From: Candidatus Multivoradales bacterium
GTDB taxonomy: Bacteria; Acidobacteriota; Thermoanaerobaculia; Multivoradales; JAHEKO01
Reading direction: 5' to 3'
DNA length: 64,000 bases
NCBI GenBank assembly: GCA_965248055.1
Contig: CBDFIJ010000004.1
Span: 1,824,001 to 1,888,000 of the forward strand
In this document: positions 2,999-52,463 of the stretch, piece after piece
Position numbering within the stretch: position 1 is the first letter of the stretch
Layout of the letters: each line of letters opens with the position of its first letter
The notes under the pieces: generated by a model
Databases searched by the model: none
Told to the model about the DNA's origin: nothing
The model's input: only the letters and a program-made list of their open reading frames with translations
Position numbers and translations under genes: made by a program

Positions 2999-5900
2999 CG
3001 CTCCTCCTGGAGTGGAAGCTATGTCGCAGTTGATCGATGTCGAGGCCCACGTTCGCCCCTCTATCGCTTTGTATAGCCAGTGCCAGCTCTTCGGCTACCA
3101 CCCCGACTCGGGCACAAGGAAGATCTGCCAGCACCGCCTCAAATTCCTGTCGGTTTCGATCGGCAACCGTCACCACAAACCGACCGTTCGATTCTGAAAA
3201 CAAAGCCACGTCCGCATCCATCTTCGTGGCGCCTGGAAGCGCGCCGAGGTCTATCGAAACTCCCAGGCCTCCGGCCATCACGCACTTGGCGAGCGCCACG
3301 CCCAGTCCCCCCTTGGTGGGTGTCGCTGCGGAGCGGATCAAGCCTTGTTCCAACGCTCGGCTCAATGCCTGATACACCGGAAGGAATGCTGCGGTATCTA
3401 CCGTGGGCACCTTGGTGCCAACGTAAGCGGCAGGCACCGACAGGTTGTCGGTTTTCACCGCTTGATCCAGCACCCCTAAGTAACGAAAGTACTCACTACC
3501 GCCAGTGTGCTCCCCAGTCATCCCGAGCACATAGATCGCATCCCCAGCCTGTTTGAAATCCAAGGTGACAGCCATTTCCACGTCATCGATCTGGCCGATC
3601 GCCGACAGCAGCAAGGTCGGTGGCACCGAGATCTTGACCCCACCCATCACCGCGTCGTTCTTCATCGAATCCTTACCCGAGATCAGCGGTATGCCATAGG
3701 CAACGCAGGTGTCATAGAGGCCCCGGCAAGCGCGCACCAATTGTGCCAGTTTGTAATCACCGTCCGGGGCGCTGGCAGACAGCACCGGGTCTGGCCAGCA
3801 GAAATTATCCAGCGCGGCAATCCGATCCAAGCGCCCACCGGCGCATAACTGCTTGCGTAGCGCCTCATCCACCACCGTGGCGGCCATCTCCTGAGCGTCA
3901 AGATCGGAGAGATAAGGATTGACCCCCTCGGAGAGTACAAACCCACGTTTCGATTCGCCGCCGTCCAACTCGTGCCGCGCCAGGAACACGGTTGCCTCAG
4001 CCGGAATATCCTGCTCCACCCCGACCCACGGCTTGACCACCGACAGTGCCTTGACCTCGTGGTCGTAGTGGCGGGCGAAGTCTTCGTTGGAAGCGAGGTT
4101 CAAACCGGAAAGAAGTCCGAGCAAACTGGTTGCTAAGTCGGCGGGTCGGTTAGCAGGCTCATCGAAAACAGGGGGTTGCCAACGCGCAGGCAACACCATC
4201 TCCGGATCGCCCTCATGCAGGAAGTGCATATCCAGCAGGGCCACCGTTTGTTCGCCGTAAAACACGCGCAAGGTCGGATCAGCCGTGAACTCACCCAGGT
4301 CTGTAGCCTCCACCTCACGCCGCGCCGCCAGCGCCAGCAGCGTCTCTAGCTTCTCCGGAGGTACCGCCAGGGTCATCCGCTCCTGGGCTTCCGAGAGAAA
4401 AATCTCCCAGGGAGCCAACCCAGCGTACTTGAGCGGTGCCTTAGCCAAGTCCAAGATCGCTCCACCCGGGGTCTCTGCCATCTCGCCCACCGACGATGAC
4501 AAACCCCCGGCTCCGTTATCGGTGATCGCCGAGTAGAGCCCCAGGTCCCGGGCTTCGAGCAAGAAATCAAACATCATGCGCTGGGTGATCGGATCACCGA
4601 TTTGCACCGCTTGATTGGGCGATTCTTCATCCAGAGCGGCGGAAGAAAAAGTTGCACCATGAACCCCATCGGCGCCGATGCGACCACCAACCATGACGAT
4701 CCGGTCACCTGGGTTGGCCGCTTTCTCCTCGCCTGGCGTGCCGTCAATGGTCACCGGGAGTGAGCCCACGGTGCCGCAGAACACCAACGGCTTGCCCAAG
4801 TAACGGTGATCGAACACCTCCCAGCCGCGGCCATAGGGGACGCCGCTTTGGTTACCGCCGTCGATCACCCCGTGGTGTACCCCCTCGCGGATCCGTCGTG
4901 GGTGCAGCAATCCGGGAGGTAGCTCCTGATCCCATTCGGGAGGACCAAAACAATAACCCCAGACGTTGACCAGCAAGTCCGCTCCTCGGCCAGTGCCAAA
5001 AGGATCACGATTGACGCCGACAATGCCGGTGATCGCCCCACCGTAAGGATCCAGCGCAGACGGAGAGTTGTGTGTCTCGACCTTGTAGACCAGATGGACC
5101 TGATCGTCGAAGGTCACCACCCCAGCGTTGTCGTGAAACACCGACACCAACCAAGATTCCCCATCCCGGTCGATCTGCTGCTGGCGTACCGCGTCGGTGG
5201 TGCCTCGGATGTAGGTGCCAAACAGAGAATCAACCGTCTCGCTCGCTCCGTGCTCATCCTGATACTCAATCGTGGCGTTGAAGATCTTGTGCTTACAGTG
5301 CTCGCTCCAAGTCTGAGCCAAGCACTCCAGCTCGACATCCGTCGGTGACCCTTCAAGCCCCGCGGCTCGGCGATCAGAGTCGTCATCTAGACTGCGGAAG
5401 TGATCGCGGATGGTCTCCATTTCCACCAAGGACAGGGCCAAGAGCCCTTTGCGACTGATCTGCTCCAACTCTCGATCACTACCGGAAAGGTCGATGGCCT
5501 TGACCGCTGGCGGAGGTCCACCCGCCACCTTGGGGACCGTCAAGTCGGGGTCGGAGTTAATCCACTGGTTCCAGCTCGCAACCGTGATGGTTTGAATCAC
5601 CGGATTGGCCAGCAGCTCCACCGCCACCCGTTCGGCTTGCTCGGCGTCGAAGTCGCGAAACAGAACCAACGTCGAGGTGTAGACCGCAGCGCCCTCGCCC
5701 AGTTTCCGGCCAACAATGTCCTCGACCGCCACCAACGCACTCTTGCCCACCGGATCGGCAACTCCCGGCTTAAACGCCACTCGCACCGCGACATCAAACG
5801 GTTCCAAATCCACTCGGCCCAAAGCCGCTACCTGGCGCACCGGGTCGGCGAACTCTTTAGCTACTTGAGCCGCTTCAGACGCCGAAACCGCACCCTCCAG

Positions 5901-46435: not shown

Positions 46436-46696
46436 ATGAGTAACCTACAATCCATCCCCGGAGTCGGACCTTCCATCGAGCGGGACTTGTTAACGCTAGG
46501 GTATCGGGAAATCTCCGACCTCAGAGACCAAGACCCGGAACAGATGTACCAACAAAGCAATGAACTGGTCGGATTGCGCCAAGACCGGTGTTTGCTCTAC
46601 GTGTTTCGCTGCGCCGTCTATTTTGCTGAAACGGTGGATCTCGAGCCTGAATTATTGAAGTGGTGGTCGTGGAAGGATCGAGAGCTTCCGAGATGA
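46436..46696 (+). CDS. Helix-hairpin-helix Cdd1-like protein
   Basis: IPGVGPSI, DRCLLYVFRCAVY, KWWSWKD. Confidence 0.85.
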   Translation: MSNLQSIPGVGPSIERDLLTLGYREISDLRDQDPEQMYQQSNELVGLRQDRCLLYVFRCAVYFAETVDLEPELLKWWSWKDRELPR

Positions 46697-47046
46697 TCTG
46701 TCCTGAGTGCCGCGGTGAGTTCGTGCCAGGGGTTGTGGACTGCCCAGACTGCCATCTGGCGCTAGTAGAAGAGCTGCAGAACGATTCGCTGGTGGTACGT
46801 TCTGAACCTTGGGTCACGGTGGCCAAGATCAGTAGCCCGGTCGAGTTGACGGTTCTCAAGTCGATGCTGGAGAGCCATGGGGTTCCGGTATTCGTTCCTG
46901 GCGAGCATTCCTTCCAGCAGGTCCCGGCGCTGCATATATTGAGACATACGACGCTTATTGCTGGTCAATGCAAGCTGCAGGTCCCAGAGAACTGGCTCGA
47001 GAGGGCGCGCGAGCTGATCGCCGCCGAGCCACAAGACCGGCCGTGA
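46693..47046 (+). CDS. Zinc-ribbon / DUF2007 protein
   Basis: CPEC...CPDC, KSMLESHGV. Confidence 0.8.
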   Translation: MICPECRGEFVPGVVDCPDCHLALVEELQNDSLVVRSEPWVTVAKISSPVELTVLKSMLESHGVPVFVPGEHSFQQVPALHILRHTTLIAGQCKLQVPENWLERARELIAAEPQDRP

Positions 47047-48032
47047 ACTGGCTGCGACGTCGCGCCGCGGCAACCCGCGCTGTATGGAACTCCAACCTCT
47101 ACCATGGCTGGAGCCGGTCCAAGAGTTTCTTCGAGGGTTGGTACTTCAAGGTCGTTGATCCAGCGCAAACTACTGCCCTGGCCTTCATCCCTGGGATCTC
47201 AATGGACGCCAAAGGCGACAAGTTTGCCTTTGTCCAAGTGCTCGACGGAATTGCCGCCAAGAGCTACGAGTACCGTTTCCCAGCCGATTCCTTTGTCGCC
47301 GATCCAAAGCGATTCTCGGTTCAGGTGGCCGACAGCCGTTTTTCCCTTGAAAAACTTGATATTGATCTGCCTGATTTCCGGGGGCAACTGGAACTCTCCA
47401 ACCCTTATCCCTGGCCATCCTCCTGGAAATCGCCGGGAGTCATGGGTTGGTACAGCTTCGTCCCCTTCATGGAGTGTTACCACGGAGTTGTCAGCATGGA
47501 TCACGACCTGGCCGGAATTCTGGAAGTTAGTGGCCGAACGGTCGACTTCGACGGCGGTCGCGGCTACGCCGAGAAAGACTGGGGCACTTCTTTTCCCCGT
47601 TGCTGGATTTGGGGTCAGTCGAACCACTTTGCCGATTCGCCCGGCACTAGTGTCATGTTCTCGATCGCCCACATCCCCTGGCGCGGTAGCTACTTCATTG
47701 GCTTCTTAGCTGGATTGCTGCACCAGGGCACGCTGTATCCCTTCACCACCCACAACCAGTCGAAAGCCGAGGTAAAGAGGATTGAACATGGGGTCGATAT
47801 GACCTTTCATCGCCGCGACTATGAGCTTCGAGTTACGGCTCGCCAGGCCGAAGGTGCCGAGCTCTTGTCCCCTGTCCAGGGTGCCATGGTTGGCAAAGTC
47901 AACGAGAGTTTGCGAGCCAGGGTAGAAGTGCAACTGATCGATCAGGGGGAGGCACTCTTCACCGGCACCGGAACCAGAGCTGGGCTGGAAATTGCCGGGG
48001 ATACCCAGATCTTGGTCGACCAGTTCGGATAG
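47043..48032 (+). CDS. Tocopherol cyclase-like protein
   Basis: FFEGWYFK, MECYHGVVSM, GYAEKDWGTSFP, W.QSNHF. Confidence 0.88.
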   Translation: MNWLRRRAAATRAVWNSNLYHGWSRSKSFFEGWYFKVVDPAQTTALAFIPGISMDAKGDKFAFVQVLDGIAAKSYEYRFPADSFVADPKRFSVQVADSRFSLEKLDIDLPDFRGQLELSNPYPWPSSWKSPGVMGWYSFVPFMECYHGVVSMDHDLAGILEVSGRTVDFDGGRGYAEKDWGTSFPRCWIWGQSNHFADSPGTSVMFSIAHIPWRGSYFIGFLAGLLHQGTLYPFTTHNQSKAEVKRIEHGVDMTFHRRDYELRVTARQAEGAELLSPVQGAMVGKVNESLRARVEVQLIDQGEALFTGTGTRAGLEIAGDTQILVDQFG

Positions 48033-48292
48033 AGGTGACCGAAGCAAGATAGATCCCCGTCCCCCAACCAACCCTCGTTGGGAATACCCTGAAAGGATGC
48101 TTATGAACAACTATTTGTGCCACTTTTTGTATTGATTTATGCAGGGTTTAGTCAATTACAATGATCAAATGGCATCTGATTCAGGGTCAGGCAAAGGAGT
48201 TGAGTATTACGGTAGGCGCACCGTGCGGGTTGAAGCTCCTTTTCTAGTTGTGTGTGAACGCTCTTCGTTTACACTGTTCACGGAGGGCAGCA

Positions 48293-49213
48293 ATGAGCGA
48301 ACTTACCGACCTCGAGAAAAAACTACACAAGGCAGAGAAACTGAGGGTTAGGCGGCGAAAAGCCTATATCGCAGCAGATTACACAAAGCGGTGGGGCCTG
48401 CGCCTCATAGTGGTTGCTTTAGGGATCATTCTTATCCTTGTAATCTTTTGGATCCTGTTTCGGTGCTTCGATGGTTCACTACAAGGACTTGGGGAAACTA
48501 GTTCACCACCAAGCTCCGGGGAAGCTGGTTCACCGCCAAGCTCCGGGGAAGACTCCCGTAGCCAACTGGGAACAATCCTTTTTGCGGTCGCTACCCTCAC
48601 ACTAACTCTCATCGCGTTTCTGTTAGCTATCCTCTCGTTCTTTGGCTGGTTTTCCATTAAAGATAAGGTTGTTGCGGAGGTGCACAAAGCCATAGCTGAA
48701 GAGAAAGATCGACAGCAACACAGGAATCGATTGACGGATGCAGTCGTTTTCTCTTCATTGGCGGAAGCAAGCCACCTAGACCACAGGAAACACTACTGGA
48801 CAGAGAACGCTATCCGTCGCCTGGAGATGTGTGTTCCGTACTTCGACCAAGCCTCAAAAGATCCTGAAGAACGAAAGCATGCACTAGCCGTGGTGAACAA
48901 CCTAGCCTTCATCTATGCCCTACGAGGGCATATAGCAGACGGGCCAAAAGCAATCGAGCTTACCTATAAAGCAGCTGAAATGGCGCACAAGTTGGGCTTG
49001 GTAGACGTACCCGTGCACCTCACTCAAGCGCTTGTGCTGGCAAAATTTGGCAACCAAGCAAACGTTTCAACGGACGAACTAAAAAGCTCCCTCTTAGTAA
49101 TCGGGTCGCTAAACAGCGAAGACCGAATTAATAAAGCAACACAGCGAGAGTACTTTTTCACTAAGACCCTTCTTGAACAAACAATTGCAGAAAGGAGCTC
49201 AAGCGATTCCTGA
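48293..49213 (+). CDS. Orphan 2-TM protein with TPR-like C-terminal domain
   Basis: RBS GGAGG, two long hydrophobic helices, NNLAFIYA...KAIELTYKA helical repeat. Confidence 0.75.
   Translation: MSELTDLEKKLHKAEKLRVRRRKAYIAADYTKRWGLRLIVVALGIILILVIFWILFRCFDGSLQGLGETSSPPSSGEAGSPPSSGEDSRSQLGTILFAVATLTLTLIAFLLAILSFFGWFSIKDKVVAEVHKAIAEEKDRQQHRNRLTDAVVFSSLAEASHLDHRKHYWTENAIRRLEMCVPYFDQASKDPEERKHALAVVNNLAFIYALRGHIADGPKAIELTYKAAEMAHKLGLVDVPVHLTQALVLAKFGNQANVSTDELKSSLLVIGSLNSEDRINKATQREYFFTKTLLEQTIAERSSSDS
48491..48550 (+). repeat. 27-bp tandem repeat in the inter-TM loop
   Basis: GGGGAAACTAGTTCACCACCAAGCTCC / GGGGAAGCTGGTTCACCGCCAAGCTCC, encoding GETSSPPSS GEAGSPPSS. Confidence 0.85.
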
Positions 49214-49287
49214 CAATAAGTAAAAAGAGCCCCTCCGTGCCTTTCGGCCAGAGAAGCCCTTAATCGTTTCGTCATGGAAAACGAAAG

Positions 49288-49317
49288 CTAGTAGTTGATG
49301 GTTCCTTCGTACGTCAT
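49288..49317 (-). CDS. Putative 9-aa micropeptide MTYEGTINY
   Basis: Minus strand AAGGAG-N8-ATG ACG TAC GAA GGA ACC ATC AAC TAC TAG, followed by a TTTCGT..ACGAAA hairpin. Confidence 0.5.
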   Translation of the reverse strand: MTYEGTINY

Positions 49318-49650
49318 GATAGGTACTCCTTTATTGCTAATAAGCTATGACCTACTAATTAGGCCTAGAGAGGTTGACAGCTCATAGGTTGCTCTGTCAA
49401 GAACTTTGTTACGCACCAAGCTTAATCAAAGTTTCCGTGCACCGATAACCTCTTTAAAGTAAACGTCTTACAACCCACAGAAATTCCCGTTTCTTCTAGT
49501 CACGTCACGGGTGGGACAACCAAAGCCTTAGCCCTGGATTTCAAGCGCAGAGAACTGATACAAACGAAGTATGTACGTCTGGGAGGCGAATACTATGGAG
49601 GTGGAGTTGACCCCCGCTTTAGTGGATACCAAGAATAGGATCAAAGATCC

Positions 49651-50021
49651 AAGGAGGTCGACAACGACCGAAGGCGTGAGGTGAGTTCCAAGTGAGAGAC
49701 CTGATGCAACGCGTCACCGAGGAGAAACCGGAAATGTGGGGTGACTCGATTGTCGGCTTCGGCAGCTATCACTATAAATACGACAGCGGCCGCGAGGGTG
49801 ACTGGCTGGTGACCGGATTCTCGCCACGGAAACAAGCGCTGACCATCTATGTCATGGCCGGGTTTTCACGCTACGACGAGACCCTCGATCGGTTGGGTAG
49901 ACACCGCCACGGCAAATCCTGTCTTTACATCAATAAGCTCGCAGATATCGACATGGGAGTTCTCGAGGAGCTGATTCGCAAATCGGTTGCCTATGTGAAC
50001 CAGAAAGGACAGAGTTACTGA
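49651..50021 (+). pseudogene. DUF1801 protein, 5'-truncated/frameshifted
   Basis: MWGDSIVGFGSYHY, GFSPRK, GKSCLYI; upstream KEVDNDRRRE is out of frame and the expected N-terminus is absent. Confidence 0.7.
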
Positions 50022-50049
50022 GAGGACACAATACTTTGTTTGTGCCCCC
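50022..50049. repeat. REP-like hairpin, copy 4 (degenerate)
   Basis: GAGGACACAATACTTTGTTTGTGCCCCC, nearly the reverse complement of copy 5. Confidence 0.8.
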
Positions 50050-50077
50050 TCTTTCCAAAGAACAAAGGAACAACAAA

Positions 50078-50503
50078 GTGGACAAACAGCAACTGATTGA
50101 CAACCTCAACGAAGACCTAGCTGGAGAACTCAGCGCCATCATTCAATACACCACCTATGCCGCCAAAGTGACAGGTCCGTACCGGCCACAACTGGTGACT
50201 TTTTTTCTCGAAGAGGTCGCTGACGAGCAGCTCCACGCGCAGTTTCTGGCCAACAAGATTGTTGCTTTGGGCGGTGAACCAGTAACCAAACCCCGTCCGG
50301 TGCCCCAAGCGGCAAACAATCGGGAGATGTTGGAAGCGGTGTTGGCGGCCGAGCGTCAGGCGACCCAAGACTACACCTGCCGTGCTGAGCAAGCGGACCA
50401 GTACGGTGACAAGGGGCTGGCAGTGCAATTGGAGGACATGGTGCGCGATGAGAGCGGCCACTCAGAAGAAACCGAGCGCATCTTGCGCGACTGGCCGCTC
50501 TAG
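50078..50503 (+). CDS. Ferritin-like (bacterioferritin-like) protein
   Basis: ELSAIIQY, DEQLHA, DESGH diiron motifs. Confidence 0.9.
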   Translation: MDKQQLIDNLNEDLAGELSAIIQYTTYAAKVTGPYRPQLVTFFLEEVADEQLHAQFLANKIVALGGEPVTKPRPVPQAANNREMLEAVLAAERQATQDYTCRAEQADQYGDKGLAVQLEDMVRDESGHSEETERILRDWPL

Positions 50504-50976
50504 TGCCTGACTGCCTGCAGAACTCGATCCCATGGAGCTACTGCTTCGGTTGTGGGCCCGCCAACCACCACGGGCTACAGATCAAGAGCCATTCGCACGG
50601 AGATGAGTGCGTATCCATCTTTCAGGCCCAGGAACACCACGCGGCAGGACCCAAACACTTCGTCAACGGCGGCATCATCGCCACGGTGATCGACTGCCAC
50701 TGCGTTTGGACGGCCGTCACCGACTGTGCCCTCCGAGAAGGACGAAAGTTGGGCGAGGAGCCGATTGGTTGGCACGCAACCGCCTCGCTTCAGGTGGACT
50801 ACCTGCGGCCAACCCCGATCGAAGCACAGTGCAAACTGCGCTCTTGGGTTACCAACGTAGACGGCGACCGAACCACCGTTGAGTGCGTGCTCTCGGCTGC
50901 GGGTAAAGAGCGAGCAAAGGCGAAAGTGGTCGCGGTGCGGGTTCCAGACTCTTGGGTTGAAGCCGGGTCAGGATGA
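50503..50976 (+). CDS. PaaI/hotdog thioesterase
   Basis: CFGCGPAN, NGGIIATVIDCH, VDYLRPTP. Confidence 0.88.
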   Translation: MPDCLQNSIPWSYCFGCGPANHHGLQIKSHSHGDECVSIFQAQEHHAAGPKHFVNGGIIATVIDCHCVWTAVTDCALREGRKLGEEPIGWHATASLQVDYLRPTPIEAQCKLRSWVTNVDGDRTTVECVLSAAGKERAKAKVVAVRVPDSWVEAGSG

Positions 50977-51086
50977 AGGCGATCGCCACTAAATCCGGCC
51001 AAGACAAATTCCGTTCAAGGGGCTAAAATCGCATCGTTCGGTCGATGTATTGAATCTGACAATCTAAAGTCCAGAGAACCCCAATT

Positions 51087-52463
51087 ATGTGCGGAATCTT
51101 CGGTATGGAAGGGTCGCTCGACGCGGCCAATCTCACCTACCTGGGTCTCTATGCCTTGCAACACCGCGGGCAGGAAAGCGCTGGCATCGCCTCTGCCTCG
51201 TTCGACGGCGTGCATGTCGAGCGAGGTATGGGTCAAGTGGCGGACATCTTCGATCGAACCACCTTGCAGCGCCTACCTGGAATTCGAGCTGCCGGCCACA
51301 CTCGTTACTCCACTGCAGGGGTCAGCGCGCTAGAGAACGCTCAGCCGATCAAGGTGCGGACCTCGATGGGAGAATTGGCAATTGTGCATAACGGCAATCT
51401 GACCAATGCAGCGGAATTACGTACCAAGCTTGAGGTCGAGGGTGCAATTTTCCAAACCACCAGCGACACCGAGGTTATCCTCCACTTGATGGCCCGGGAC
51501 CCACAGCCGAGGGTGGTTGATTCGTTGCGGGCGGCTCTGCGTAAGGTTCGAGGAGCCTATTCACTTCTACTGCTGAGCGAGAAGGCACTGTTTGCCGCCC
51601 GTGATCCCAATGGCTTTCGGCCACTGGTCATGGGACGCGCTGCCGAAGGATTATGTTTTTCCTCTGAGACATGTGCCTTCGACTTGTTGGACGCAACCGT
51701 CGAACGACAGGTGAATCCTGGCGAGGTTGTGCGTATCGCGGGAGAGAAAGTCGATAGCTTTGCCATCGACCTACCCGCTCGCGCTACGACGCCGTGCCTC
51801 TTTGAGCAGGTCTACTTTTCTCGACCCGACAGTTTGGTTGAAGGCGGGTGTGTCGGCGATGTTCGCCTGGAAATGGGTGCACGGCTCGCCCGCGAGGCTC
51901 CGATCGAAGCGGACTTGGTGGTTGCCGTCCCTGACAGTGGACTGTTCGCAGCAATGGGGTACTCGCGCGAAAGTGGCTTGCCGTTTGAACTGGGTCTGAT
52001 CCGTAATCACTACGTAGGCCGCACTTTCATCGAGCCCAAACAATCGATCCGCCACTTTGGGGTCAAGGTCAAGTTGAACCCCGTACGTTCCTTGATCGAA
52101 GGCAAGCGGGTGGTGATGGTCGATGACTCGATTGTTCGAGGAACCACTTCCCCCAAGATCGTCAAGATGTTGCGTAACACTGGTGCAAAGGAAGTCCACG
52201 TGCGAATTTCTTGCCCACCGACCACCAATCCGTGCTTCTACGGCATCAACATGCCCACCCGCGAAGAACTGATCGCTTCCAGTCGTTCGGTGGAGGAGAT
52301 TCGCCATTTCATCGGCGCCGATAGCCTTGCCTACTTGTCGTTGGATGGACTCAAGCAAACCACCGGGAAGAACGGGTCTTGCGTCGCCTGTTGGAGCGGG
52401 GAGTATCCGGTGCAGGTGACCGGTGGTAAACAAAAAGAACCCCTCCACACAGGGGCTCCATGA
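51087..52463 (+). CDS. purF: Amidophosphoribosyltransferase
   Basis: MCGIFG, LQHRGQE, GHTRYST, VDDSIVRGTT. Confidence 0.98.
   Translation: MCGIFGMEGSLDAANLTYLGLYALQHRGQESAGIASASFDGVHVERGMGQVADIFDRTTLQRLPGIRAAGHTRYSTAGVSALENAQPIKVRTSMGELAIVHNGNLTNAAELRTKLEVEGAIFQTTSDTEVILHLMARDPQPRVVDSLRAALRKVRGAYSLLLLSEKALFAARDPNGFRPLVMGRAAEGLCFSSETCAFDLLDATVERQVNPGEVVRIAGEKVDSFAIDLPARATTPCLFEQVYFSRPDSLVEGGCVGDVRLEMGARLAREAPIEADLVVAVPDSGLFAAMGYSRESGLPFELGLIRNHYVGRTFIEPKQSIRHFGVKVKLNPVRSLIEGKRVVMVDDSIVRGTTSPKIVKMLRNTGAKEVHVRISCPPTTNPCFYGINMPTREELIASSRSVEEIRHFIGADSLAYLSLDGLKQTTGKNGSCVACWSGEYPVQVTGGKQKEPLHTGAP

Follow-up and report, generated by a model that had tools for sequence, protein, structure and literature searches.

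Peptide genes that lie next to receptors with tetratricopeptide repeat (TPR) domains are known from two sets of bacterial systems. In the RRNPP systems (Rap-Phr, NprR-NprX, PlcR-PapR, Rgg-SHP, and AimR-AimP), a TPR receptor of 250–500 amino acids binds its peptide in the cytoplasm, and mobile elements and phages are frequent carriers of the genes (PMC10075063). In the leaderless communication peptide (LCP)/RopB systems, peptides of 8–10 amino acids are translated directly from short open reading frames (ORFs) led by a ribosome binding site (RBS) and serve as ligands of TPR receptors (PMC10518010). A comparable arrangement is found in a stretch of 64,000 nucleotides, hereafter the window, from Candidatus Multivoradales bacterium (assembly GCA_965248055.1, contig CBDFIJ010000004.1, positions 1,824,001 to 1,888,000 of the forward strand). 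Here, a micro-ORF of nine codons, predicted to encode MTYEGTINY, converges on the gene of P0001, a membrane-anchored TPR-fold protein of 306 amino acids. The small unit is probably a genuine partner of the membrane protein, whether as peptide or as RNA, because similar units recur beside distant homologues, the boundary of a mobile cassette encloses the gene pair, and the terminator is specific to the micro-ORF strand. The narrower proposal is tentative, with slightly less than an even chance of being right: the pair would be a mobile conflict module, in which an unprocessed cytoplasmic peptide binds the TPR groove of a membrane effector as its labile antidote or ligand.

The small unit lies on the minus strand. 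Its SD (Shine-Dalgarno) sequence AAGGAG, read from the sequence at 49326..49331, is placed 8 nt before the ATG (49317–49315) of the micro-ORF, which extends over nine codons and a stop (49288..49317) and ends with TAG at 49290–49288. A weak A/U-rich stem of 6 bp follows directly after the stop (49266..49287, minus strand) and is absent from the minimum-energy fold. Beyond it lies an intrinsic-terminator-like hairpin with a U-tract (49218..49261, minus strand), whose bulged stem of 16 bp (49261–49225, GAAA loop) continues into UUUUUACUU. Folded alone, the minus-strand hairpin reaches −25 kcal/mol (z −5.7), a stability equalled in 0 of 200 shuffles, whereas on the plus strand it reaches only −11.5 kcal/mol, since several of the pairs are G-U. 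The same asymmetry appears when the 141-nt stretch is folded (z −4.3 on the minus strand versus −0.7 on the plus strand). The far greater stability on the minus strand means that the terminator belongs to the micro-ORF strand. An earlier sequence-only reading of this DNA had described the RBS, the 8-nt spacer, the nine-codon ORF and the hairpin, and the sequence confirms it.

A perfect −35-like hexamer, TTGACA, is found at 49395..49400 on the minus strand, 83 nt upstream of the micro-ORF ATG, and is a candidate promoter element; TTGACA also occurs upstream of the micro-ORFs in three homologous loci (L012, L015, and L018). Rfam gave 0 matches at E ≤ 1 within 46500–51500, and no tRNA was found in the window. 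Four RNA runs from a single study and a single sample, available as contigs, yielded no match for 48040–49690. A simple terminator scan did not flag the hairpin at 49261–49225. An attenuator, in which a leader peptide would control the terminator, was considered and rejected, as no alternative pairing involving the terminator arms was seen.

The partner gene (48293..49213, plus strand) starts 5 nt after the SD sequence GGAGGG (48282..48287) and is defined by its ORF, its homologues, and an AlphaFold2 model. This model, built on a 25-row alignment, has a predicted local distance difference test score (pLDDT) of 87.4 and a predicted template modelling score (pTM) of 0.68. Two long helices, spanning residues 2–66 and 87–159, are arranged around a disordered loop and precede seven helices between residues 163 and 305. 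A basic helix, predicted to be cytoplasmic, leads into transmembrane (TM) helix 1 (about residues 36–58; 48398..48466), a hydrophobic stretch within model helix 2–66 whose limits are estimated. The predicted outer loop (48467..48550), with a pLDDT of 50–57 for residues 61–90, is longer in some family members than in others. TM helix 2 (about residues 87–118; 48551..48646) belongs to model helix 87–159 and ends in the conserved family motif FGW, of which G118 and W119 are nearly invariant. The remainder is a predicted cytoplasmic TPR-fold domain (residues 132–306; 48686..49210), recognized by structural matches and conserved columns. In the alignments, N202 is invariant and N203, L204, and T244 are near-invariant; TM helix 2 is conserved, and TM helix 1 and the outer loop are variable.

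No Pfam family matches P0001 above threshold (SUR7 comes closest, with 26 bits where 29.6 are required), and the best TPR match, TPR_NPHP3, scores 19.7 bits against a cutoff of 100 (E 5.9e-4). A wide VIA-align search with residues 132–306 returned 8jal_A at Z 15.6, 2hr2_A at Z 14.8 (root mean square deviation, rmsd, 2.7, 149 aligned residues), and the PlcR-PapR entry 2qfc_A at Z 14.3 (rmsd 2.7 over 136 residues). FKBP- and Hop-type TPRs followed at Z 12–13, together with KLC2 bound to a tryptophan-acidic peptide (3zfw_B, Z 11.9, 17% identity) and the Rap protein of phi105 with its peptide (8rte_B, Z 11.8); many TPR entries lie at Z 11.4 or above. In the Protein Atlas, the best scores, 0.86, fall to TPR-type clusters and are below the level that counts. 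Both ends of the protein, and hence the TPR-fold domain, are likely cytoplasmic, as the basic N-terminal helix and the acidic Ser/Pro/Gly loop suggest under the positive-inside rule. The TPR-like C-terminus proposed from the sequence is thus borne out by the model as a TPR fold of residues 132–306, and its proposed placement in the cytoplasm is in keeping with the positive-inside rule.

The outer loop is the most variable part of the protein family. In the window it contains a 27-nt tandem duplication (48494–48542, 86% identical) that encodes SSPPSSGE twice.

P0001 belongs to a small and scattered family. A word-index search of 5.8 billion proteins returned only the query itself, and an exhaustive phmmer search of 1.84 billion representatives returned 25 proteins at E ≤ 0.001 including the query, 3 of them at E ≤ 1e-10. 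A profile search gave four proteins, again including the query. The 24 distant relatives share 24–34% identity over the matched stretches, and the architecture of two TM helices followed by a cytoplasmic TPR-fold domain is the same in the 17 full-length relatives inspected (228–326 amino acids). The earlier description of the protein as an orphan is therefore apt in that the word-index search found no close relative, but too strong given the distant ones from phmmer. All of the ten relatives that were looked up are metagenomic singleton clusters, eight unnamed, one hypothetical, and one apparently misnamed. Pfam searches of 20 members revealed no recurring family, and neither a helix-turn-helix (HTH) nor an Rgg family. 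The spread is patchy: the family profile matched 0 of 400 other genomes of the same phylum and none of 400 further genomes from the phylum that includes G432, which amounts to 1 in 401 sampled genomes per phylum in these two phyla, the query genome itself being the one. The genomes of 40 relatives yielded a single weak match (E 8.7e-4, residues 5–100) inside an 849-aa frame, which was taken as spurious. In viral contigs, none of 28 pattern matches was confirmed in either of two scans, and no match to P0001, P0023, or the homologues in L012 and L018 came from tblastn against sequenced plasmids or phages.

The neighbourhoods of the homologues are of the mobile or defence type. The L015 homologue lies just downstream of genes for an Eco57I-type methylase, a GmrSD nuclease, and a RiboL-PSP HEPN protein. 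A tyrosine integrase is encoded 1 kb downstream of the L018 homologue, and a NikA-like mobilisation protein near that of L009. L008/L011 and L010 carry truncated copies adjoining transposases, with a DNA methyltransferase-like ORF. In these copies (L008 1105–1425; L010 353–709), the homologue starts at a Met just before the conserved NNLAFYY and thus comprises the C-terminal TPR half only; each copy is downstream of a different transposase gene, and each has retained a convergent micro-ORF.

Whether the nine-codon ORF has counterparts can be judged from the DNA around these homologues. Loci were drawn from genome contigs (129 pattern matches, 1 confirmed, L008) and metagenome contigs (157 pattern matches, 10 confirmed, L009–L018), confirmation being by the hidden Markov model (HMM) of the family. 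L017, a weak match of 478 amino acids with a different architecture, was dropped, as were L011 and L019, whose DNA is that of L008. Merging L012 with L015, L013 with L016, and L008 with L010 gives a counted set of nine loci (the window, or WIN, L009, L012, L013, L014, L016, L018, L008, and L010) in seven independent groups. Micro-ORFs were defined as ATG ORFs of 5–25 codons on the opposite strand, −40 to +130 nt around the homologue stop, and were regarded as SD-led when a match of at least 5 nt to the SD consensus occurred 4–11 nt upstream.

By this rule, every one of the nine loci contains a convergent ATG ORF (one to three each), with counterparts of 7–18 codons, and an SD-led one is present in seven of nine loci and five of seven groups. 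The same rule applied to 4815 long-ORF ends of the source genome finds some convergent ORF at 1913 (39.7%) and an SD-led ORF at 104 (2.2%). Inside the loci, the background of SD-led micro-ORFs is 0.03–0.11 per 170-nt strand window. A binomial estimate for five of seven groups at p = 0.07 is about 3e-5, a value that is indicative only because the rule was fixed after the first matches had been seen. The position is similarly constrained: seven of the eight micro-ORFs outside the window end −29 to +21 nt from the homologue stop, and in L012/L015, L009, and L014 the two stop codons overlap. The absence of similar micro-ORFs beside homologues had been named beforehand as grounds for abandoning the idea, and they are present at all nine loci, with an SD at seven.

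The encoded peptides are MTYEGTINY in the window, MAFDGTWEW in L018, MKFDPTSVPSPR(A/V)PSPGI in L012 and L015 (18 codons, beginning MKFDPT), MNIIAESGPGAAE in L013, MFVIIKTEPGR in L016, MRDDKDFGFGR in L008, MSTIRDDVDFGF in L010, MAPMQGQIDKI in L009, and MNLQATG in L014. The expectation that such peptides would end in an aromatic residue holds for the window, L018, and L010 (three of nine) and fails for the other six. The L016 homologue has an in-frame TAA at 692–694, though the frame runs on to 901 and is still 61% identical to the L013 protein; it may be a pseudogene or a sequencing error.

Some of these peptides resemble one another across distant loci. MTYEGTINY and MAFDGTWEW are of equal length and fit the pattern M-[TA]-[YF]-[ED]-G-T-[IW]-[NE]-[YW], with a BLOSUM score of 15. 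Dinucleotide shuffling of the eight other regions gave a score this high in 13 of 2000 and 20 of 2000 shuffles, and 12 of 26,518 micro-ORFs of the genome reach it, which, with twelve candidate ORFs compared, corresponds to roughly 0.005. The looser pattern M-x-[FYW]-[DE]-[GP]-T occurs in 3 of 37,023 ATG ORFs of 5–40 codons in the source genome; on both strands of the window and all loci, it is confined to the convergent ORFs of WIN, L018, and L012/L015. The likeness may reflect retention, convergence on a common groove, or luck, an ambiguity that arises because the motif does not follow the receptor tree.

Closely related pairs of loci show what is kept and what moves. The L012 and L015 neighbourhoods are unrelated, and the two loci have in common only a 917-nt block of 96% identity plus an unrelated piece of 129 nt. 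The block comprises 98 nt upstream, the homologue, the 18-codon ORF, and a TTGACA-N17-CATATT promoter, and it ends 15 nt beyond the −35 element. These limits indicate that the mobile unit is the gene pair. Between L013 and L016, whose proteins are 61% identical, the SD and ATG align in register and the DNA further upstream is unalignable. In L008 and L010, the SD is 6–7 nt from the ATG in both despite a 7-nt indel, and RDDxDFGF is retained with mostly synonymous differences, as read from the sequences in a very small sample.

Three tandem AAATAGAAC-like units occur in L015 at about 5470–5520 (minus strand), at or just beyond the cassette boundary and upstream of the micro-ORF promoter. One copy is present in L012. 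The unit may be a binding or recombination site.

How does this pair compare with the systems it recalls? With LCP/RopB, represented by SIP-RopB of Firmicutes, it shares a mature peptide that comes from an ultrasmall RBS-led ORF with neither leader nor processing (nine codons here, as predicted), a gene adjoining a TPR-type receptor of about 300 amino acids, and peptides that differ between systems (PMC10518010). The receptor, in contrast, has two TM helices, no N-terminal DNA-binding domain, and no sequence relation to Rgg or RopB, and the likeness is at the level of the generic TPR fold only. The peptide is polar or acidic (T, E, G, T, N), while LCPs are highly hydrophobic, with aliphatic and aromatic residues, and the two genes are convergent, whereas characterised LCP genes are divergent from ropB (PMC10518010). 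The setting also differs: no regulated target operon is present, and the contexts are of the mobile and defence type. The lack of hydrophobicity in the peptide and of Rgg homology in the receptor excludes the pair from LCP/RopB.

The RRNPP systems likewise have a peptide gene beside a TPR receptor, and by their published signature the 306-aa receptor is within 250–500 amino acids and the 74 nt between the stops are within the neighbour distance of −60 to 400 bp (PMC10075063). Two other parts of the signature differ: propeptides of 10–100 amino acids compare with nine codons here and 7–18 among the counterparts, and the export signal (Sec, or PptAB for the SHP/PrgQ type) and cleavage sites are missing (PMC10075063). 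MTYEGTINY contains no signal peptide, as nine residues leave no room for one and a basic-hydrophobic N-region is absent. Where the signature asks for a TPR HMM match at E < 1e-5 (PMC10075063), the locus offers TPR_NPHP3 at E 5.9e-4 and a fold match at Z 11–15.6. The receptor is moreover membrane-anchored and carries neither an HTH nor a phosphatase output. With a peptide that is too short, no export signal, no TPR HMM at threshold, and no output domain, the pair is not a member of RRNPP. Its likeness to both sets of systems is one of analogy, confined to an adjacent micropeptide and TPR receptor; the comparison with RRNPP and arbitrium receptors made in the sequence-only reading survives as analogy and fails as membership.

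Three further systems resemble single features of the locus. In kinesin light chain, a TPR groove lined by the Asn residues of LNNLA-type repeats binds short aromatic-acidic cargo motifs, tryptophan-acidic or tyrosine-acidic. The invariant NNL(A) of the family and its x-Y-E-G, x-F-D-G, and x-F-D-P peptides are reminiscent of this and may serve as a lead on the binding mode only, whereas kinesin light chain itself is a soluble adaptor of a eukaryotic motor and has no demonstrated common ancestry with the family. Convergent type I toxin-antitoxin loci (par/Fst-RNAII of pAD1, TxpA-RatA, and BsrG-SR4) consist of two units whose 3′ ends meet or overlap; one product acts on the membrane, and mobile elements carry such loci. 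There, the toxin is a small hydrophobic peptide of under about 60 amino acids and its partner a non-coding RNA. The locus in the window differs on both sides, with a membrane protein of 306 amino acids that includes a TPR domain and a small partner that carries a conserved SD-led, non-hydrophobic ORF. CBASS and Pycsar effectors combine an N-terminal TM hairpin with a cytoplasmic ligand-binding domain and occur in defence islands. They respond to a cyclic nucleotide that a partner enzyme produces, and their sensor is not a TPR. Layout and defence-type context are alike, but the domain here has a TPR fold, and 0 of 20 family members match PADLOC.

In the proposed mechanism, the island would carry a compact, horizontally mobile cassette of two genes. 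The first would encode an inner-membrane protein with its basic N-terminus inside, two TM helices, a stalk helix, and a cytoplasmic TPR-fold domain with the Asn-Asn-Leu motif. The second would be a separate small convergent transcription unit with a strong SD, nine codons, and its own terminator, translated directly into unprocessed MTYEGTINY. The peptide would stay in the cytoplasm, as it has no signal sequence, and could occupy the TPR groove and hold the membrane protein in one state. It would most likely keep a membrane-acting effector in check, as its negative ligand or short-lived antidote. Loss of the peptide supply, through a block of translation or transcription during phage attack or through loss of the element, would release the effector, in an abortive-infection or addiction logic. 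Translation, topology, binding, and the direction of effect are all inferred. That the peptide is a ligand or antidote of the membrane protein, as first suggested from the sequence, is supported in part by the recurrence of the micro-ORF, the TPR fold, and the likely cytoplasmic placement of the domain. A translated peptide is favoured over a pure antisense RNA because of the conserved SD-ATG arrangement, the TPR fold, and the LCP precedent. Since most loci leave no room for a terminator, a component at the RNA level is likely as well.

The conserved partner may instead be an RNA. On this account, which is unlikely but deserves serious weight, the convergent transcript overlaps or is antisense to the 3′ end of the membrane-protein mRNA and exerts control by pairing with it or by interfering with its transcription, in the manner of convergent type I toxin-antitoxin loci; the SD-led ORF would then be auxiliary, with ribosome loading stabilising the RNA, or the RNA would be dual-function. 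Eight of the nine loci lack a terminator-sized gap between the micro-ORF and the homologue, and folding of three loci (L012, L013, and L018) gave no stable hairpin in this position, so a micro-ORF transcript must continue into the gene as antisense RNA. The membrane-protein gene of the window is without a good terminator on the plus strand (−11.5 kcal/mol, poor U-tract), and its mRNA would therefore be complementary to the micro-ORF RNA, although there the small transcript would end at the minus-strand terminator, short of the gene. Folding of the entire minus-strand unit is stable (z −4.3), yet it has no Rfam match. Poor conservation of the peptides from group to group, and their failure to follow the receptor tree, also speak for an RNA partner. 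A pure antisense RNA, however, needs no properly spaced SD and ATG, and these are found in five of seven groups, with their register kept in L013–L016 and, notwithstanding the 7-nt indel, in L008–L010, where the differences within RDDxDFGF are mostly synonymous. The toxins of type I loci, besides, are small hydrophobic peptides and not proteins of 306 amino acids. It is improbable that the peptide is an intercellular signal like the Firmicutes LCPs, one that is exported, taken up again, and detected by the TPR domain to let the cassette gauge the density of carrier cells. This idea draws on LCPs being peptides of 8–10 amino acids from RBS-led ultrasmall ORFs without signal sequence that bind adjacent TPR-type receptors (PMC10518010), and on a receptor length and a gap, 306 amino acids and 74 nt, within the RRNPP ranges (PMC10075063). 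The high hydrophobicity of LCPs (PMC10518010) sets them apart from MTYEGTINY and most of its counterparts, which are polar or acidic. The receptor is anchored in the membrane and has no DNA-binding domain, the island has no transporter or regulated target operon, and singleton occurrence of the cassette in scattered lineages is ill suited to signalling among kin.

A chance ORF in decaying acquired DNA, the terminator being a relic or serving the membrane-protein gene and the other ORFs being AT-rich coincidences, also has a low probability. It gains from the frequency of short ORFs: the genome has 23 AAGGAG-led ORFs of fewer than 15 codons, and a convergent short ATG ORF of some kind occurs at 39.7% of gene ends. 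It gains as well from thresholds set after the data were seen, a small sample, a motif scattered on the receptor tree, and damage at the 5′ end of the neighbouring DUF1801 gene, which indicates that the region has seen decay. SD-led micro-ORFs in five of seven groups, however, compare with a background of 2.2% to about 7%. The L012/L015 block ends just outside the micro-ORF promoter, only 13 and 20 of 2000 shuffles reproduce the likeness between the WIN and L018 peptides, and the hairpin is much weaker on the strand opposite the micro-ORF.

Several observations weigh against a cognate peptide and its TPR effector. The source genome contains 263 AAGGAG-N5–10-ATG sites, of which 166 open ORFs of 100 amino acids or more, so the organism does use this signal. 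Of the rest, 23 of the 263 lead ORFs of fewer than 15 codons; 40 such ORFs have fewer than 30 codons, and 8 of these 40 lie outside long ORFs, about the chance expectation by a rough estimate. With own-genome counts at chance, the micro-ORF of the window is not significant when taken alone. It lies 74 nt from the P0001 stop rather than abutting it, no convincing −10 element follows TTGACA, and a promoter scan gave no minus-strand match here. Beside homologues, the micro-ORFs of L018 and L014 have no SD. The comparative sample amounts to seven independent groups, and the window of the search, its thresholds, and the peptide pattern were chosen post hoc. The peptides diverge widely between groups, and even L013 and L016 agree at 4 of 11 aligned positions by our own count. 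A maximum-likelihood tree places P0001 with P0002 and P0003 (99/95) and L012, L013, L014, and L018 in another clade. On this tree, the peptide motif needs three changes, no better than shuffled labels, and the L013 and L014 peptides differ from those of their clade-mates L018 and L012. As for the receptor, Foldseek against the Protein Data Bank (PDB) gave 0 matches at E ≤ 0.001, the best rows being 14-3-3 proteins and TPR domains. Helical repeats give generically high structural Z-scores, and the match is therefore read as ‘TPR fold’, nothing more specific. Finally, 0 of 20 family members match any PADLOC-DB 2.0.0 model at E ≤ 0.01, so a defence role is argued from the neighbourhood, on a few short contigs.

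If the proposal of a peptide-controlled membrane effector is correct, its consequences extend beyond this locus. The pair could represent a new class of mobile conflict module spread across distant phyla, with a leaderless peptide of 7–18 residues as the cognate ligand of a membrane TPR effector and the smallest protein antitoxin known; so broad a claim is, at present, rather doubtful. A nonapeptide would be very short-lived and could thus gauge ongoing translation. A phage that shuts down host expression, or loss of the element, would then stop the supply of peptide and free the effector. Peptide-TPR recognition would gain a new architecture and probably a new role, the output being a membrane effector and not transcription. 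Genes of fewer than about 15 codons escape annotation, and very few are known to act as peptides, the Firmicutes LCPs being the main precedent. The reality of a nine-codon ORF can nevertheless be addressed by position-anchored comparison beside very distant homologues, and the cassette, at about 1.2 kb, is small and easily testable. A literature search of titles and abstracts, with subscription journals outside its scope, found no described system of a membrane TPR protein and a micro-ORF.

The cassette is contained in a low-GC insertion (48033..49600, no strand assigned), delimited by a drop in GC and by comparison with G001, a genome of the same genus; the right edge is approximate. The island lies between a tocopherol-cyclase-like gene and a DUF1801 gene. 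GC is 0.44–0.52 between about 48050 and 49700 versus 0.55–0.62 in the flanks, a profile that agrees with the AT-richer island first noted from the sequence. G001 has the tocopherol-cyclase-like gene, a 97-bp spacer, a 140-aa DUF1801 gene, and a thioesterase gene, and the window carries about 1.56 kb, from 48033 to roughly 49600, in place of these 97 bp. Direct or inverted repeats in the flanks were considered as insertion scars and rejected, the matches being only short and weak.

Elsewhere in the source chromosome (C4), identical AAGGAG-led short ORFs recur, which points to repeated elements: MSRQRLDLLC is found three times (144285, 310413, and 706397) and a 26-codon ORF twice (1143813 and 2105924). 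The same assembly includes three contigs, C1–C3 (14.8, 16.7, and 28.4 kb), with a GC content of 39–43% versus 57% for the chromosome. ORFs of 120 amino acids or more cover only 13% of C1. These contigs may be plasmids, phage, or contamination.

The DUF1801 gene on the right flank of the island (window 49639–50021) is apparently damaged at its 5′ end. Residues 14–29 of the G001 protein align in frame 1 (49639–49686) and residues 32–140 in frame 3 (49692–50018), and the ORF that remains in the window encodes 109 amino acids from a GTG at 49692. In G001, the DUF1801 and thioesterase genes abut, whereas in the window a ferritin/Dps-like gene (50036–50503; Pfam Ferritin, E 3.5e-25) is located between them. 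This stretch has a GC content of 0.48–0.50 and may be a second small insertion.

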